From IMG/VR virus record IMGVR_UViG_3300030419_005497, positions 1 to 52,264 of that record: a stretch of DNA of 52,264 bases; one strand, 5' to 3'. Source of the DNA: a virus (taxonomy: Duplodnaviria > Caudoviricetes). The position numbers were made by a program, and so were the translations under genes. Below, in pieces: positions 7,586-46,805 of the stretch (position 1 is the stretch's first letter; every line of letters starts with the position of its first letter). Below the pieces are notes generated by a model. That model did no database searches. It was not told where the DNA came from and saw only the letters and a program-made list of their open reading frames with translations.

Positions 7586-9787
7586 CTACTTACCGTTTAG
7601 ATAAGCGGAGAGATACTTTACATCCCCTACTTCTATCCCGTGATAATAGTCATTCGGGTTCATGAACTTAATCATCGGGTATTCTTCAATGAGTTCATCC
7701 ACCTGTTGCAAGTACGGGTTCTCTCCATCAGTATCTTGCTCAGGTTTCATAATTTTTTCAACCTCGTCCCTATCGATACCAAGACGAGCAAGGCCGCAAC
7801 GTAGGTTACTGTAGTGATCTCTAGGGCTACGATTCACTTTCGCAGAATTCGCGGCATCAACTAAATCCATGTATAAATGGTTTTTGTTTTTTAGCTGGCT
7901 TCGCAAAGTATTAATAATCTCATCTTTTGCAATAATGAAATTAGCATGGTAGCGAATTTTATCGCGGTTGCACCAATCTACTGCATCTTCATAGGCGTTG
8001 TTTTCTTCGGCCCATTTTGTCACGATTTGAAAGGTGACATCTTTCAATGCAGTCCAACCCTTACCAAGTTTCTTTATGGCTGAACTTTTAACAGCATAAA
8101 CTTCATCTTCGGAAGGAATGTCCTCTACGACTTCACGCATAGACCTCAGATGCTTGAAATAGACTTGAGGTGTTTCACCATCAATTTTATATCGATTCAT
8201 TTCAATGAAAATTCCATCAGTCTTTTCATTTAGATCGCAGTCAACTGGTTTCCAGTAGTCAGAATCATTACCCGTTTCTCCTGCTGAACCGTCTCTAACG
8301 AATTTGAATACTTTCAGATTGTTTTTTGGATTAGTGGGAGTATAGGAGCGAGTACCACTTGTGGTACGCTTCCCAAAGTCCTCTGGGAGAGAAACCTCCG
8401 ACAAATTTTTAATTTCACAATCAACTTTTGTTTTATCTAAAAACTCCTCCATGCCGTTGACCATCTTGCCCTCATTGTTGGCGTAATGCTCTGGGCAACT
8501 AATAAGGTGAACGTCATTCCCTGCTTCTGCCTCGCTCACGCAACGAGCGTAGAGTCCACGGGGGTTGGGAAGATCATTGTAGTAAAGAACAGTGTTTGGC
8601 TTCACCGCAATGTTGCGAGTTTCAACTCTACGGAACTTTTGAGTGTTTCGAGACTTCTCATAGCGATAAACCTTGAGGGGGCTACTACGCAAGTCCCAGC
8701 AAGAGATATTGGCAGAGTCGATTGCTTGACCATCATAGTCCACCTTTTCCACGATTCGGGAAAGGGTGTAGTATCCACTTCCGTAATCAAAAAGCTCGCC
8801 ATAGAGCAGTTTCGCTCCCCAATAGGACTTTTCGTTGGCAAATTTCTCATGAATTTGCCCAACGATTTCCTCCTTAATCTTGAGCATCTTTTTTACTATG
8901 TTCTTAATCGTAACATCAGTATATTCCAACATCTCGCGAGAGGCGGCGACACTCAATTCCCCGATTTCAAATTCAATATGCAGACATTCGCTGAACATAT
9001 TCTCTAATTCCTCTGGGACGTTTTTGAGGTTACTCTTTTCAATCCGGTAAGCAACATTGCCCATGATCGCAACTGGCTTGTTGTCGGAGTAATAAGTAGA
9101 AGTATTCGATGTGTTCCACTCCCATTCATCCCCAGAAAGAATTGGATCTTTTTGATCTTCAAAAAAAGTTGGTCGGCCCTTTATGACGGGCTTAACCTTG
9201 AAGTAGCGGAAAAACTCTTGAGCCTTTTCCTCAAAGACATTTATATCGTCTGGCTCAACGGGAATAATAACTTCGATCCCGTTTTCCTCATTGGTATCAC
9301 TAACGCCAAGTAAATCGCACTGACCTACCTTACTTGGATCAATAATTGCATTGTAGTGATAGCACTTGCCATCGACGTATGACTTAACCATGAAACTATC
9401 GGAATAGGCAAAGGCAGACTTACAACCGATTCCAAACATACCGATTGCATCATTAGTTCCACGCTTGGTTGACTCACCGTATTGAGTGTAGATATTCCGA
9501 ACCTCATCAGTGGTCAAACCCTTGCCATAATCGCGAACCGAAAACTCAGTCAGTAATCGAGTAGGAAGCCCAATTACAATAGGTCTTTCGGGCTGACCTG
9601 TTTGAACATGAGCATCTACCGCATTGCAAGCATACTCACGCTGAACTGCTAAAATCTTGTCCGAATACATTGAGTTTCGGAGAATATCCAGAAGGTGAGG
9701 CAATCCACTTTCAGAGATTGCGAACGAGACGGATTCCTGTATCCCTTTTTGGGATAAGGCGTTTTCATTAATTGGAGTTGGTTTCAT
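7586..9787 (-). CDS. rIIA: rIIA-like protein with N-terminal GHKL/HATPase domain
   Basis: MYSDKILAVQREYACNAVDAH, VRDYGKGL, YGESTK, IGMFGIGCKSAFAYSDSF; MGNVAY and GEL...SRE.L.Y; upstream of rIIB. Confidence 0.9.
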   Translation of the reverse strand: MKPTPINENALSQKGIQESVSFAISESGLPHLLDILRNSMYSDKILAVQREYACNAVDAHVQTGQPERPIVIGLPTRLLTEFSVRDYGKGLTTDEVRNIYTQYGESTKRGTNDAIGMFGIGCKSAFAYSDSFMVKSYVDGKCYHYNAIIDPSKVGQCDLLGVSDTNEENGIEVIIPVEPDDINVFEEKAQEFFRYFKVKPVIKGRPTFFEDQKDPILSGDEWEWNTSNTSTYYSDNKPVAIMGNVAYRIEKSNLKNVPEELENMFSECLHIEFEIGELSVAASREMLEYTDVTIKNIVKKMLKIKEEIVGQIHEKFANEKSYWGAKLLYGELFDYGSGYYTLSRIVEKVDYDGQAIDSANISCWDLRSSPLKVYRYEKSRNTQKFRRVETRNIAVKPNTVLYYNDLPNPRGLYARCVSEAEAGNDVHLISCPEHYANNEGKMVNGMEEFLDKTKVDCEIKNLSEVSLPEDFGKRTTSGTRSYTPTNPKNNLKVFKFVRDGSAGETGNDSDYWKPVDCDLNEKTDGIFIEMNRYKIDGETPQVYFKHLRSMREVVEDIPSEDEVYAVKSSAIKKLGKGWTALKDVTFQIVTKWAEENNAYEDAVDWCNRDKIRYHANFIIAKDEIINTLRSQLKNKNHLYMDLVDAANSAKVNRSPRDHYSNLRCGLARLGIDRDEVEKIMKPEQDTDGENPYLQQVDELIEEYPMIKFMNPNDYYHGIEVGDVKYLSAYLNGK

Positions 9788-9820
9788 GATTTGTATGTGT
9801 TATTCGTTTAACTTGAGACG

Positions 9821-9864
9821 AGCTTATAGGAATACTTATGCGGAGTCAATCTTTTTTTTCGTTA
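9821..9864 (-). promoter_or_regulatory. early promoter with ACGAAAAAAAA element
   Basis: TTGACT (9849-9844), 17 bp, TAAGCT (9826-9821). Confidence 0.75.
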
Positions 9865-12123
9865 TTCTCCCCAAAACTTCCACCAAGGCTTTTCCTCTGT
9901 TTTCGGTTCAAATATAGCCCCCTCTTTTTCGGTGGAGGTTTGAACTTCGACTTCAGCTTCCTTGTCTGGCTGTTCGTTAACTTGTTGGTCTACTACTTTC
10001 GATTTTAAATTTGAAAGATTTTGGTTTATGACTTCTGCCGCTACTTTAACCTTATCCAAAAGGCCACTAGGGGTAGAATCATCATCAAGGAGAATATGAT
10101 GTGTTCGCTTCCCCTTCTTCATAAGGTGTTCTGCTCTAGCCTCAAGCACTTTGTCCATATCCTTATCCCCAACGCTTACTGTTTCCCATGTGCAATACTC
10201 TCCCTCTGGCCTTATATTAACTGGTACAGGGAAATCGCTTGGCTTGTAAAAACCCCATCTGCTTTTTGCTTTACCATTCTTAAATTTTTCATGTTTCCTA
10301 ATTCGGATATGAGGCATCGGGGTTTGCCCATTCCCCTTGTTGTAGTCCTTGCGCTTAACCGTGCCATCTGATTCGTCGTAGTAATACTTCTTCTTGTTTC
10401 TCGGAACGCTGATGTTCCTAGCTTCGTATGCTTCAGTTTCTTCGTCGGATACTGGAGGCGCGTTTTCACCTTTGGATCTTTTTTCTTCGCGGTCTTTGTT
10501 CTCTCTTTCTACCCATTCAACCGTCTCTTGATTGATTCGTACTAGATTTTTTATACTAAAAAGGACAAGTCCTATAATGGAATCTTTTAAGACCGCATAC
10601 GTTTCTCGGTGCATCAAATCCTCAAGGACTGTAAAATCGCCGTTATACGAAATAGTTAAGTCTTTGCTTACTGTAATATCAAAAGAAGGATTAAACATAG
10701 TCCAATCATGTTCCGCTACCTTGAATTTTTCAAACTTTTCCTTCGGTACTACTTTTTCAGTGAAAGTATTGCGGTAAAATGTGAACCTCATGACTCCTCT
10801 CCTATCCGAATGACCCTCTCTCTGTTTGTTGATAGAAGCGTTCCATAAAAACTGCCTTTTCGTGAAAAACTTTTGAAAATCTTCTCCATTCTCAAGCGTG
10901 ACCTTTTCCGATTGCTCCCAATACATAGACTTCATGCTACTCAGCATAGTGGGATGCACCAAAGGCAAGCAATGATGCTGGTTCAATGTCACCGGATCAG
11001 TCGCTCCTTCTTTATCACACTTTTCCTTCTCGGTTTGTGAGAAGCAAGTTCCTGACCCAATATGTCTACCTAACCCAAGTAAAGCCTCTTTTTGTGGTTC
11101 TCCAAAAATCTGCTCAAATCTTTTAACGTCATCATCTTCTTCGGTTAATTTCGTTATAGTAAAAGATGGCAATGTTTTATCTTCATGCTCTACGACATAG
11201 GCACTTCTGTTGGAAAAGCATATATCAAACCAATTAGATGGAAGATCATCCCTAAAAACAAAAGGAATAGCAGGGTACAACTCCTGTTTAATTTCCCTGT
11301 CGAAACCGTCAGGATCTTTTTGGTCGCCATCGGCATAGTAACAATCAGTCCAATCGTTTTCATCTGAGCCAATAATTTTTGATCTAGTTTTGCCAATTTT
11401 CCATATCGCCCTACTCTCAGACATGAAAATCTTTTCGCATATCAAATCTTTAAGGTATTGATCCGCTATGCCATACCAGTTTGGGTCATCTACGTTCCCC
11501 ATCTTCCAGTTCAGATCGCTCTTTATCTTTTTTGAGTCTCTTAAATCATCCAATACTTCATTAATGTTATCCATGCACCAATTTACATAAGCAACATAAG
11601 ACTCCATGATCCATTCTTCATCGAGCGGTCTTAACCCCCTGTATCTTTCGTTCAAAATTCCGTCTTTATGCCTACCACTCTTAATTAGCTTGTTAATATG
11701 ATTTCTAAAACTAGGTTGACCAAGGGGGGATTCTTCATCGTGCTTCAGCATGAGAAGTCGATTTTTCAGACAATCTTTTTCTAATGCGTTTGGACTCGCA
11801 ATTTCCCACTTCGGCCTAACCAGTATTTTTTGAACTTCAGACTTATCGTATAAATAACCATTTTTATAGTCAAAGTCACTCATGTCCCTCAAATGACTAG
11901 AAGAAAGGGAATCTTTGGTAATGGAAGAAGATAGAGAGCGATTTGAGTAGGGTTCTCTATCGTAGTTTTCTTGCCTTGAATTAAAATAGGCCCACTGGTT
12001 TTTGTCTCCAGCTTTCGGCGTATTACCGATTTGGTTTGCGTCAGCGGTGAACCCAACGGACTTATTCTTTTTCCGTCTTGGGGTTGGCCCCCTTCCCTTT
12101 TTTCTACCCTTACTCTTTGGCAT
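9862..12123 (-). CDS. large hypothetical protein (753 aa)
   Basis: long uninterrupted ORF; very basic N-terminus, PMPHIRIRKH segment, C-terminal KPWWKFW; own promoter. Confidence 0.85.
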   Translation of the reverse strand: MPKSKGRKKGRGPTPRRKKNKSVGFTADANQIGNTPKAGDKNQWAYFNSRQENYDREPYSNRSLSSSITKDSLSSSHLRDMSDFDYKNGYLYDKSEVQKILVRPKWEIASPNALEKDCLKNRLLMLKHDEESPLGQPSFRNHINKLIKSGRHKDGILNERYRGLRPLDEEWIMESYVAYVNWCMDNINEVLDDLRDSKKIKSDLNWKMGNVDDPNWYGIADQYLKDLICEKIFMSESRAIWKIGKTRSKIIGSDENDWTDCYYADGDQKDPDGFDREIKQELYPAIPFVFRDDLPSNWFDICFSNRSAYVVEHEDKTLPSFTITKLTEEDDDVKRFEQIFGEPQKEALLGLGRHIGSGTCFSQTEKEKCDKEGATDPVTLNQHHCLPLVHPTMLSSMKSMYWEQSEKVTLENGEDFQKFFTKRQFLWNASINKQREGHSDRRGVMRFTFYRNTFTEKVVPKEKFEKFKVAEHDWTMFNPSFDITVSKDLTISYNGDFTVLEDLMHRETYAVLKDSIIGLVLFSIKNLVRINQETVEWVERENKDREEKRSKGENAPPVSDEETEAYEARNISVPRNKKKYYYDESDGTVKRKDYNKGNGQTPMPHIRIRKHEKFKNGKAKSRWGFYKPSDFPVPVNIRPEGEYCTWETVSVGDKDMDKVLEARAEHLMKKGKRTHHILLDDDSTPSGLLDKVKVAAEVINQNLSNLKSKVVDQQVNEQPDKEAEVEVQTSTEKEGAIFEPKTEEKPWWKFWGE

Positions 12124-12502: not shown

Positions 12503-12579
12503 TGGTTGGCCCGTAGGGACTTGAACCCTAAACCTTGGAATTATGAGTTCCCTGCTCTAACCGATTGAGCTACGGGCCA
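12503..12579 (-). tRNA. tRNA with CAT anticodon, probably tRNA-Ile2 (alternatively elongator Met)
   Basis: TGGCCCG TA GCTC..GAGC A GGGAA CT CAT AA TTCCA..TAGGG TTCAAGT CCCTA CGGGCCA A CCA; C4/C5 in acceptor stem as in Ile2; encoded CCA. Confidence 0.9.
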
Positions 12580-41654: not shown

Positions 41655-41731
41655 TGGTACGTCCAGAGGGATTCGAACCCCCGACCCCAAGTTTAGAAGA
41701 CTCGTGCTCTATCCAACTGAGCTATGGACGC
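41655..41731 (-). tRNA. tRNA-Arg (TCT)
   Basis: GCGTCCA TA GCTC..GAGC A CGAGT CT TCT AA ACTTG..GGTTCGAATCC..TGGACGT A CCA. Confidence 0.95.
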
Positions 41732-42989: not shown

Positions 42990-43271
42990 TTATTTAAAAG
43001 TAGAATTTTCGAAAATAAAGTCCGCTAAATCTCTAACGGTTATTATATCGTTAAAATCCATCATGTAATTGTTTATTTTTATGGAGTGAATTTCTTCCAT
43101 CGCCATCATCATATCTACGGTATCTAAGGAATCTATCTCTAATTGAGAAACGGGGGTATCAAGCGTCACTTCCAAGTCTCCAACTGCCGTGGCATCACTT
43201 ACTTCTTCAAGGACTATTTTATAAATTTTTTCTTTCTTCTCCTTGTCTTCCATTTTATATCTCCAATTCAA
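42990..43271 (-). CDS. acpP: acyl carrier protein
   Basis: acidic ~85 aa; L.IDSLD.VD.MM..EE...I.I, TV.D (DSL phosphopantetheine serine). Confidence 0.8.
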   Translation of the reverse strand: MNWRYKMEDKEKKEKIYKIVLEEVSDATAVGDLEVTLDTPVSQLEIDSLDTVDMMMAMEEIHSIKINNYMMDFNDIITVRDLADFIFENSTFK

Positions 43272-43482
43272 ACTTTAAGCATAGTCCTTTATAAAGCTCC
43301 CTGTGTTCATCTTTTATGTTTTCGCCGCCAATCTTTAATATGTGGTGGATAAAGCCAAGTTTGTAAAACGGGAGAAACTCTATGTCAACCTTTATTTGGC
43401 TTTTAGATAAGCTTACGAGCAAAAACATTAAAACGTCTAGCTCTTCTTCAGATAAAGAATTTATTATATGTCTATAAATCAC
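43255..43482 (-). CDS. hypothetical protein
   Basis: 75-aa ORF between acpS and ACP. Confidence 0.55.
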   Translation of the reverse strand: MIYRHIINSLSEEELDVLMFLLVSLSKSQIKVDIEFLPFYKLGFIHHILKIGGENIKDEHRELYKGLCLKFELEI

Positions 43483-43852
43483 CTAAGTTTTTATTCTCTA
43501 TAATGCAAACAGCCGTAGCGTACCCCCCAGAATGACTTATACTTAAAGAGGAGGTAAGTCCTTTCGGTAAGTTATTGTTGGGAAAATAAATTACAGGCTT
43601 TCCTTTTTCGTCCCTCATGATCTCCATTTCCGTAAAAGGAATCATCTCTTTGACGTTGCCTGTTAACGCTTTATGCGCTGCTTCTTTGGCTGCCCATCTA
43701 CCCGCTATAGAGTGAGAGCTATACCCTTTATTAAGGCAGTACTCTTTTTCTCTTTGGGTTAAAAACTTATCTAAAAAACGCTCACCAAAAGAAGACAATA
43801 AGGATTCTATTCTTGGAATATCTTGAATGTCAGTACCAATGCCAACTATCAT
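43472..43852 (-). CDS. acpS: holo-ACP synthase (AcpS-type phosphopantetheinyl transferase)
   Basis: IVGIGTDI..I.RI, F.T..E, AGRWAAKEA..KAL, G.P, LSISH...YA.A. Confidence 0.92.
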   Translation of the reverse strand: MIVGIGTDIQDIPRIESLLSSFGERFLDKFLTQREKEYCLNKGYSSHSIAGRWAAKEAAHKALTGNVKEMIPFTEMEIMRDEKGKPVIYFPNNNLPKGLTSSLSISHSGGYATAVCIIENKNLGDL

Positions 43853-44901: not shown

Positions 44902-45207
44902 TCACCCAGTAAACTTACCTGTGCTTAGATCCACTCCAGCGTCATCGACTGTAGGGCAACACTTCCTGTAAGTGTAAAGCGGTCTGCCAACTGAATCTGC
45001 CTTTTTGCCAGTTCTAAAGATTACGCCATCTTTTACTGCTTTCCTCATTTTTACTCGAATGGCAGTTGGGGTTATCTCTTTTCCGGTGCTCTTCTTAAGT
45101 TCTGCAAGTACGTCTCTCGCAGTAAACTCTACGTTTGGCCATTCAACATCAATAGAGGGGCGTCCTCTTTTTTTAGCTATGGTTTTATTAGTTGTATTAT
45201 CTTTCAT
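44902..45207 (-). CDS. winged-helix DNA-binding protein with AT-hook-like RGRP
   Basis: KKRGRPS, FT..D, I....IR..M...V..G, GRP...Y; start taken at MKDN. Confidence 0.65.
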   Translation of the reverse strand: MKDNTTNKTIAKKRGRPSIDVEWPNVEFTARDVLAELKKSTGKEITPTAIRVKMRKAVKDGVIFRTGKKADSVGRPLYTYRKCCPTVDDAGVDLSTGKFTG

Positions 45208-45284
45208 CCGCCCCAAGTCTACTAATCAGAATCTCAATTACAAGCTTTTTTTTGATTTTTTTGATTTATCCGGTAACTTGAAGG

Positions 45285-45707
45285 GTGACTGTTTTTGATG
45301 CAAGCGTAACGCTTTTCGAGTGGTTCAAGAATAACGATAATTTTTCCATAAAATCGGATTTCAAGTCTGCTTTCCCTATTTCCTTAGAGGAAGAGAAAGA
45401 TAAGGCTGTAATCATGGCCGCTCTGAAGGATATGACAAATGCGGAAATGCTGGTCGAAGGGGAGGCTGATGGATCTGAAATTTGGCTGCTAAAAAGAAAA
45501 TTAGACCAAATGAACCAAACCATAGAGATAACTTACGACACCGCATCTCAGGTGTCTCTCCTCGTAAACACCTTTTGCGATGTAGCCGGAATGAGTCAAT
45601 ACACTTGCGATGCAAGCGAGATAAAGGAGCAGGATATAAAATCTTTGTGCTTTATAGCTCAAACTATGGCCGCCGGACAAGAAAGCCTTGACGAAGACAC
45701 CGAATAA
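45285..45707 (+). CDS. hypothetical protein (first gene after strand switch)
   Basis: 140-aa ORF, GTG start. Confidence 0.7.
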   Translation: MTVFDASVTLFEWFKNNDNFSIKSDFKSAFPISLEEEKDKAVIMAALKDMTNAEMLVEGEADGSEIWLLKRKLDQMNQTIEITYDTASQVSLLVNTFCDVAGMSQYTCDASEIKEQDIKSLCFIAQTMAAGQESLDEDTE

Positions 45708-45715
45708 TGCAAGCT

Positions 45716-46083
45716 TCAGTTCAAAAGGTAGCCAATCCTTTTAAGCTCGCTGAGAGCAATCAGTGGAGTTTCCTGAGATAACCGAAGAAAAGTAGGGTGG
45801 GATCAAGGCTTGTTCCCTATCAAAAGGATACCACCTGTTATGCGACAGGAAAAAGGACTCGTAGTTAATTACTGCGGCAATGCCCCGGCGTGTTGTGGTA
45901 GACGAACGTAAGTAGAGTTTTTAAGCACAGTCCCTCTCGCCTCCATGTGGGGTAGTTTGTCGCAGATGTCATGTCTGCTCGCATTTTGTCGCGCTCCCCA
46001 CGCATTATAATTAAGGGGCTTCAAAGAAGATTCGCATTTAGACAAAATAAGATACCCCTTTTTTTAAGGGGGTATTTTTGTCC
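45716..46083 (+). ncRNA. putative structured non-coding RNA (unassigned)
   Basis: GC-richer intergenic region with at least 8 helices, G-U pairs favouring + strand, TTGACG at 45688 upstream, terminator at 46052-46079. Confidence 0.6.
46052..46079 (+). terminator. intrinsic terminator
   Basis: atacccctt...aagggggtat followed by tttt. Confidence 0.75.
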
Positions 46084-46121
46084 TTATAGCTTAAAGAAAA
46101 GTTCCCATTTCTCAATAAAAC

Positions 46122-46150
46122 TTGTAATAAAAAAGTAACAAGTCTATAAT
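46122..46150 (+). promoter_or_regulatory. sigma70 promoter, leaderless kinase mRNA
   Basis: TTGTAA (46122-46127), 17 bp, TATAAT (46145-46150); ATG at 46158. Confidence 0.75.
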
Positions 46151-46157
46151 CATTATC

Positions 46158-46805
46158 ATGCCGAAAAAATTTTTTATTGGAATTGGAGGGGTAGCTGGAT
46201 GCGGGAAAGATACCTTTTATCAGATAACAAAAGATATTCTCCAAGAAGAGGGGATTTCCGTGGAAAGACTGTCATTAGCCGACCACCTTAAAGAAGATTT
46301 AAGGAAATTCATAATAGACAAGTTTGATATTGACCCGACCAACTGCACCCGCAACGAAAAAGACAAAATAAGACCCCTCCTCGTTGCCTACGCAAAACTA
46401 AAAAGGGAAACTTCAAGAGGTAGATATTGGATTGAAAAAGTAGATGATTACATAAAAACTTTATCTATTACAAAAAAGACTTTATTTATGGTTACGGATC
46501 TCAGGTTTAGTTTTTATGAAAAAGACGAAGTTTACTGGATTCAAGAACAAAAAAAGGGAATAGTTGTGCATTTAAGTAGATTTGAGGAGGATACAGACTC
46601 CGAAGGAAAAGCAATTAAAAGTACGATTACTCCAGCGAACGAGGAAGAAAGAATGCACGACCCGCTAGTTAAAGTTCGTGCTGATTACAAATTTAATTTC
46701 CCAACAATTGACGCCAATGATGATCAATTTATGAATAATTTAAAACCAAAAATTAAAAGCGCCCTTAATAAGATTAAAAAAGATCACGGACACTTTTTTA
46801 ATTGA
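46158..46805 (+). CDS. deoxynucleoside monophosphate kinase-like P-loop kinase
   Basis: IGIGG.AG.GKDT, LAD.LK, R.LL, W, VTD.RF...E. Confidence 0.8.
   Translation: MPKKFFIGIGGVAGCGKDTFYQITKDILQEEGISVERLSLADHLKEDLRKFIIDKFDIDPTNCTRNEKDKIRPLLVAYAKLKRETSRGRYWIEKVDDYIKTLSITKKTLFMVTDLRFSFYEKDEVYWIQEQKKGIVVHLSRFEEDTDSEGKAIKSTITPANEEERMHDPLVKVRADYKFNFPTIDANDDQFMNNLKPKIKSALNKIKKDHGHFFN

Follow-up and report, generated by a model that had tools for sequence, protein, structure and literature searches.

Phage-borne structured RNAs without assigned function are an established kind of genetic element. Large RNAs that combine many covarying helices and pseudoknots with a conserved unpaired core are, to our knowledge, rare; past examples are ribozymes, guide RNAs and self-assembling architectures such as the GOLLD and ROOL complexes. 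GOLLD and ROOL are at least about twice the size of the RNA described here. T4 carries the stable RNAs C and D (species 1 and 2), which are about 120–140 nt long and are located in its tRNA cluster, and primer or origin transcripts are represented by ColE1 RNA II and by the early transcripts at the T4 replication origins. GOLLD and ROOL have been described as large ornate non-coding RNAs that are often carried by phages or prophages (bioRxiv 10.1101/2024.12.08.627333). In a survey of IMG/VR, 10,006 candidate structured RNAs were predicted (Fremin et al. 2023, PMC10690425).

In the window (the whole stretch of DNA that was analysed, a viral contig of 52,264 bases estimated to represent about one third of a genome), an earlier note had proposed, from the sequence alone, a stand-alone structured RNA of unknown class at 45716–46083 that is not simply a leader. 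The structured RNA is confirmed, and its stand-alone character is supported by its own promoter and terminator, by covariation, by its non-coding nature and by the relocation of the module in some lineages. The locus is almost certainly a real structured non-coding RNA gene of a family undescribed so far, which is restricted to an uncultured clade of marine T4-like phages. Comparison with described families revealed neither homology nor a shared architecture.

Like GOLLD and ROOL, the RNA is stand-alone, large, intricately folded and phage-carried, with a conserved core and without an assigned function. In contrast, it gives no covariance-model match to them, does not lie beside tRNA genes (about 4 kb separate it from the nearest tRNA) and is found in marine T4-like phages. 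The T4 RNAs C and D are likewise non-coding RNAs of unknown function in a T4-type phage; the present RNA, with about 350 nt and its own promoter and terminator, is set apart from them by description and not by sequence. With riboswitch or attenuator leaders it shares a pseudoknotted core followed by a terminator and a neighbourhood of nucleotide-metabolism genes, but it differs from these in having its own promoter, a further promoter-like site past the terminator and variable, separated or convergent downstream genes, and in being much larger than known aptamers. It resembles ColE1 RNA II and the T4 origin transcripts as a structured, presumably early transcript beside a divergent promoter region with direct repeats nearby. 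Compared with origin modules, however, two repeats are present here, and the structural and sequence conservation of the RNA far exceeds the known needs of priming.

The RNA derives from the same source collection as the candidates of Fremin et al., and from the same kind of evidence, i.e., covariation in viral intergenic regions. The main text of PMC10690425 contains no motif in the context found here, with zero occurrences of 'dUTPase', 'kinase' and 'winged'; the family may be among the candidates, the comparison covering the main text. Literature searches gave no description of the RNA. Rfam 15 (4227 covariance models), searched with the whole window at the gathering score, returned only two tRNAs elsewhere and no family at the RNA, in agreement with the earlier view of an RNA of unknown class. 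At E ≤ 10 the interval 45200–46400 gave only three look-alikes in the terminator region (E 2.3–7), which score 17–21 bits against cut-offs of 55–65. A likeness of AGGGUGG (45794–45800) to a T-box motif is weakened by its lack of conservation across lineages and the absence of an Rfam hit. ARAGORN found no tRNA or tmRNA in the RNA region; elsewhere in the window it found only a tRNA-Met (CAT, 12503–12579) and a tRNA-Arg (TCT, 41655–41731), both on the minus strand. No match was obtained when the region was compared by blastn with 50,697 phage records, nor by tblastn of both flanking proteins or by a locus search with the adjacent 140-aa protein as single query.

Both rIIA and a clamp loader are encoded in the window, which therefore belongs to a T4-like phage. 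Its rIIA homologue (7586–12123, minus strand; phrog_612, E = 6.9e-113) is only 28% identical to the best cultured relative. The adjoining ORF of 752 aa, possibly a divergent rIIB, matches no PHROG at E ≤ 1e-5. By eye, the translations of 42990–43271 and 43472–43852 (minus strand) resemble acyl carrier protein and holo-ACP synthase, a pair that is unusual phage cargo.

Gene organization and transcription signals

The coordinates of the RNA gene and its surroundings are given in Table 1. The RNA lies near a strand switch, with genes running leftward up to 45216 and rightward from 45285. The usual order, found in most lineages, is a dUTPase-like gene, a gene for a small basic protein, the strand switch, the 140-aa gene, the RNA and the dNMP-kinase-like gene, and this conservation makes a local role for the RNA possible. 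The G+C content is 0.48 at 45700–45999, compared to 0.33–0.39 in most neighbouring windows. The plus strand folds with -114.4 kcal/mol (z = -3.14), and none of 100 shuffles folds as well; the minus strand (z = -1.70, five of 100 shuffles as good) is not clearly above chance. A protein-coding gene was rejected, the window copy having 2–6 stops in each of the six frames and the copy lengths of 257–310 nt being spread over the modulo-3 classes (18, 11 and 16). The approximately 450 bases between the 140-aa gene and the kinase gene contain no credible ORF.

Table 1. Features of the RNA locus in the window
Feature	Position	Strand	Remarks
140-aa acidic winged-helix protein gene	45285–45707	+	usually directly before the RNA
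P1 promoter	45690–45718	+	-35 TTGACG 45690–45695; 17-nt spacer; -10-like AAGCTT 45713–45718
H0, 5'-terminal hairpin	45723–45742	+	AAAAGG/CCUUUU; 95.9% paired; 4 of 6 pairs with both-side changes
Ha, hairpin	45746–45768	+	CUCGCUG/CAGUGGAG, one bulged G; 100% paired; 4 of 7 both-side
H6, long-range helix	45771–45828	+	45771–74/45825–28 and 45777–79/45819–21
H1, small hairpin	45781–82/45792–93	+	enclosed by H6
H2, small hairpin	45799–802/45814–17	+	enclosed by H6; loop with UGGCUU
H3, hairpin	45834–45849	+	CCUGU/ACAGG; 97% paired; 5 of 5 pairs covary
PK1, pseudoknot	45840–45844/45980–45984	+	H3 loop with downstream strand; 75–85% paired; unfitted loop columns
H4, pseudoknot helix	45855–45933	+	GGACU 45855–59/AGUCC 45929–33; crosses Hc; 93.2% paired
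Hb, hairpin	45860–45876	+	CGUAGU/ACUGCG; 99.3% paired; 6 of 6 covary; also in unfitted alignment
Most conserved core	45877–45937	+	junction GCAAUGCCCCGGCGUGUUGUGGUA; Hc 5' strand (45901–07); GUAAGU
Hc	45901–45961	+	GACGAAC/GUUUGUC; encloses core hairpin and H5; 98.7% paired; 6 of 7 covary
Core helix	45914–17/45934–37	+	AGAG/CUCU; loop UUUUUAAGCACAGUCC
H5	45940–43/45949–52	+	92.9% paired; 3 of 4 covary
Hd, hairpin	45962–66/45974–78	+	GCAGA/UCUGC; 94.6% paired; 5 of 5 covary
He, hairpin	45991–93/46001–03	+	GCG/CGC; 89.5% paired; 3 of 3 covary
X-pre, first repeat copy	46018–46039	+	GCTTCAAAGAAGATTCGCATTT; last RNA segment before the terminator
Intrinsic terminator	46052–46081	+	stem 46052–61/46066–75 and U-tract; terminator scan
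X-post, second repeat copy	46089–46110	+	GCTTAAAGAAAAGTTCCCATTT; just past the terminator, about 33 nt before the next -35 box
P2, promoter-like site	46122–46150	+	TTGTAA-17-TATAAT; 10 of 12 matches; before the dNMP-kinase-like gene
dNMP-kinase-like gene, downstream	46158–46805	+	phrog_139, E = 7.5e-14

The upstream TTGACG that had been pointed out earlier is the -35 box of a conserved promoter, P1. Of 42 distinct upstream stretches, 41 contain TTGACN at 31–40 nt before the model start or first hairpin and 38 contain the full pattern TTGACN-N16-18-NANNNT, compared to rates of 7.9% and 2.0%, respectively, in random 78-mers of the same loci. In the window P1 overlaps the last codons of the upstream ORF, and the clade of the window has a weak -10 hexamer (AAGCTT). 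By eye, the -35 box overlaps the upstream stop codon in several lineages and is thus conserved as DNA, not as coding sequence. The terminator that had been noted for the RNA was recovered by the terminator scan; its C-run/G-run stem and U-tract are present in all 46 homologues, and the stem pairs are kept in the unfitted alignment. Likewise, the promoter that had been ascribed to the next gene has a counterpart in the promoter-like site P2. The pattern TTGNNN-N16-18-TANNNT occurs within 110 nt past the terminator in 25 of 44 homologues (control rate 12.5%), in 20 of these 25 at an offset of 45–55 from the terminator. From the positions of promoter and terminator we infer a transcript of about 350 nt, which would span approximately 45723 to 46081 on the plus strand.

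The arrangement of the RNA relative to its neighbours is not constant. The L027 lineage carries the RNA on the other strand (L027:3857–4257, minus strand), flanked by the dUTPase gene and a DUF1360-like gene, and its 140-aa gene directly abuts the kinase gene; in L086 and L087 the RNA is also on the opposite strand and similarly apart (L086:2255–2541, minus strand). The relocated module, which adjoins the dUTPase gene, consists of promoter, RNA, repeat, terminator and repeat. One sub-lineage (L004, L066) has a 196-aa ORF between terminator and kinase gene (L004:2344–2934), and in several lineages the downstream genes vary or converge. Because the module is relocated or separated from the next gene in some lineages, it is regarded as a stand-alone gene and not as a leader. 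The separations, relocations and convergent genes speak against the RNA as leader of the kinase gene and likewise as an obligatory 3' UTR.

The 140-aa protein family is present in 59 of the 78 RNA loci, most of the remainder being contigs that end early. It has no Pfam or PHROG family and comprises 40 clusters, all unnamed, in a collection of 5.8 billion proteins. The AlphaFold model (pLDDT 90.1) has a winged helix at the N-terminus and, after it, two long helices. A profile search against the PDB gave a weak match to the MarR-type proteins ZitR/AdcR (E = 0.014), and Foldseek with the model found no PDB entry at E ≤ 0.001, winged-helix proteins appearing at E 0.016–0.14. All 30 members analysed are strongly acidic, with pI values of 4.14–4.75 (median 4.47). 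This acidity would fit a protein–protein adaptor better than an RNA- or DNA-binding protein, and a ribonucleoprotein is therefore not claimed; such a complex with the adjacent protein is weakened further by the lineages in which gene and RNA are apart. In most lineages the first leftward gene at the strand switch encodes a basic protein of 104 aa (44902–45216, minus strand) with a KKRGRP stretch and without a Pfam or PHROG family. This protein is a stronger candidate for nucleic-acid binding than the acidic one.

Homologues and conserved fold

With the kinase protein five close and three distant loci (34–42% protein identity) were collected, and a profile of the close RNA copies revealed the RNA in all three distant contigs. 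Most further copies were fetched with a degenerate pattern derived from the shared core, which matched 16 stretches in viral contigs and 44 in metagenome contigs; among 185,579 prokaryote species, represented by one genome each, there were no matches. Each of the 79 sources has exactly one copy of the RNA. The copies, 72 of full length and seven cut by contig ends, reduce to 46 distinct full-length sequences. The invariance of the core in this set is partly forced, since most copies were fetched by the core pattern. Loci fetched via the neighbouring 140-aa protein (6-sequence alignment), free of any RNA pattern, were used as a control set. The RNA is present in 11 of these 12 loci, the twelfth ending inside the protein gene, and is thus found in every one that has flanking DNA; the RNA pattern had missed seven of these 11. 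The most divergent copy, L088:3963–4267, carries 8 additional nucleotides within the otherwise conserved GCGUGU-UGUGG junction and an altered AAGCACAGU box, and is useful for defining the core bases that are truly required.

On an unfitted MAFFT alignment RNAalifold predicts 32 base pairs, 20 of which show compensatory changes. A fuller structure model was derived by inspecting the variable segments, and a covariance model (293 positions, without the repeat X and the terminator) was built from this structure and the window sequence alone; all 46 copies are full-length matches to it. In the fitted alignment of the 46 copies, 96.0% of the cells in the 13 helices are paired, compared to 75.0 ± 0.5% in column shuffles and 39–50% after sliding the partners by 1–3 columns. 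Both sides change in 48 of the 60 pairs, with 564 both-side-changed cells against 169.5 ± 13 in the shuffles, and every one of the 13 helices contains at least one covarying pair. Model-fitted alignments lean such counts towards the model; that the covariation signal is real follows from the slide control and the unfitted MAFFT result. The 13 protein-found copies give a similar picture, with 96.9% of the cells paired, both-side changes in 43 of the 60 pairs and 164 both-side cells against 50.6 ± 5.8; in these copies 43 of the 293 positions are invariant, and the core is still highly conserved.

The complementary segments listed in the earlier note are all present at the positions given there, and with the 46 homologues six of its nine proposed helices find support in covariation, i.e., aaaagg/cctttt (H0), ctcgctg/cagtggag (Ha), cctgt/acagg (H3), ggac/gtcc (H4), cgtagt/actgcg (Hb) and gcaga/tctgc (Hd). 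The other three, ggtgg/ccacc, gtgggg/ccccac and the long-range alternative tgcgaca/tgtcgca, are not conserved and had to be abandoned, their joint pairing of 59.2% being no better than in the shuffles (56.1%). Ha and the Hc/H5 region are also supported on the unfitted alignment. In the domain formed by H6, H1 and H2, the helices are 86–100% paired and 11 of the 13 pairs show both-side changes; H2 is missing in some lineages. A closing helix between CCUUUU (45737–42) and the purine run of X was rejected, as CCUUUU covaries with the local AAAAGG instead.

The H4 pseudoknot, GGAC/GUCC, is well supported: two of its pairs switch between AU and GC, in 16 and 21 of 45 sequences. The loop-to-strand pseudoknot PK1 is moderately supported. 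Its native loop/strand duplexes are more stable than those with permuted partners, only four of 2000 permutations being as good, and the four lineages that lack H3 cannot form it. Within the most conserved core, the outer pair of the AGAG/CUCU helix covaries (UA 18, AU 14, GC 11, CG 2). A 15-nt segment of the upstream ORF (45646–45660) is 80% complementary to the core loop GAGUUUUUAAGCACA (45915–45929).

The direct repeat and the competing explanations

The terminator is flanked by two copies of a direct repeat, X, with a unit of 22–30 nt across lineages. Within the same genome X-pre and X-post align with a mean local score of 27.8 and a minimum of 20 (n = 45), whereas the score across lineages is 16.3 ± 3.5 and that of shuffled sequence 15.1 ± 3.0. 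Among the 19 alignments shown, X-pre has one extra base near its start, in a short palindromic core, in 16, and X-post has an extra base or two later in the copy in 13. In many lineages X-post ends beside a -35-like hexamer. The 22-mer of X-post is unique in the window, with no further copy elsewhere in it, and a third copy upstream of P1 was rejected, as the native score there (18.8) is close to that across lineages (18.0). A covariation scan revealed no partner of X inside the RNA or its core. The X pair could represent binding sites for a factor, X-post could be a DNA target to which the 3' segment of the RNA itself is directed, or gene conversion between the two neighbouring copies could preserve their likeness. 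The changes in step, together with the promoter-like site that often follows at a fixed distance, hint at a role in cis, at the level of DNA or transcription.

These properties are the basis for regarding the RNA as part of a cis-acting DNA/RNA module, an origin or a promoter-control element, which we consider unlikely. Since X-pre has the same sequence as X-post, the RNA would hybridise there, as R-loop, primer or guide; in a variant, one DNA-binding protein on both X copies would control the start of replication or P2. Such a module would explain why all 45 genomes keep their two copies alike, and it is favoured by the palindromic core with its extra base in X-pre, by the -35-like hexamer beside X-post, by the lack of an X partner inside the RNA and by the position of the RNA at the strand switch, at the cumulative GC skew minimum. 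The T4 origins, which use early transcripts as primers, provide a precedent. However, so elaborate an RNA, with 13 covarying helices, with pseudoknots and with a core that is conserved yet unpaired, is not needed for a primer or an operator. There are two repeat copies only, with no third near P1, the adjacent winged-helix protein is strongly acidic, and gene conversion in a recombination-prone phage could keep repeats alike without any function. A bolder proposal, in which the core is a catalytic or effector domain and X-pre addresses the RNA to the X-post DNA upstream of the next promoter, is very unlikely; if true, it would amount to a natural RNA-guided switch of transcription or replication, either independent of protein or dependent on a new protein.

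That the RNA is a riboswitch-like attenuator, in which the core senses a metabolite such as a nucleotide and sets the read-through into nucleotide-metabolism genes, is distinctly unlikely. In its favour, an intrinsic terminator comes directly after the conserved pseudoknotted core, and the module is always found amid genes of nucleotide metabolism (dUTPase, dCMP deaminase, dNMP kinase, ribonucleotide reductase). By eye, segments before the terminator can also pair alternatively; a scan for covariation between the pre-terminator segment and the core gave A-run/U-run matches only. Against attenuation stand the promoter-like site between terminator and next gene, the downstream gene that differs, converges or is separated by an inserted ORF according to lineage, and the size of the RNA, which with about 300 nt and 13 helices goes far beyond that of usual aptamers. 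The arrangement that marks a leader, in which the gene downstream is conserved and no promoter intervenes, was not found. Equally, a 3' UTR element of the upstream gene, or an RNA partner of the winged-helix protein, would account for the same-strand 140-aa gene ending at most about 30 nt from the RNA in most lineages, for the RNA in all protein-found loci with flanking DNA and for the same narrow distribution of protein and RNA families. This we hold to be highly improbable: the RNA has its own conserved promoter, in the L027, L034, L072 and L086 lineages RNA and gene are 0.6–2.4 kb apart on opposite strands, and a protein that is acidic throughout would be unusual as an RNA binder.

Proposed role of the RNA

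The best reading of the sequence evidence is that the folded RNA acts in trans as a molecule, which we consider fairly probable. Host RNA polymerase would start at the RNA's own sigma-70-type promoter, with the -35 box inside the last codons of the upstream gene, and transcription would end at the intrinsic terminator. The transcript would then adopt a fold of at least 13 helices with one well-supported and a second, moderately supported pseudoknot, arranged around a strongly conserved core that is largely unpaired in the model. The folded RNA would probably be made early in infection, and its core may bind a conserved partner, such as a small ligand or a protein of the host or the phage, or may be involved in catalysis. 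It would not act as leader or 3' UTR of a neighbouring gene.

The RNA is well defined by its boundaries, promoter and terminator, by at least 46 diverse copies and by a testable fold, and can readily be taken into structure probing, cryo-EM and activity screens. The repeat that flanks the terminator and changes in step in each phage is a concrete mechanistic puzzle. The RNA is carried, amid nucleotide-metabolism genes, by an abundant and uncultured group of marine T4-like phages.
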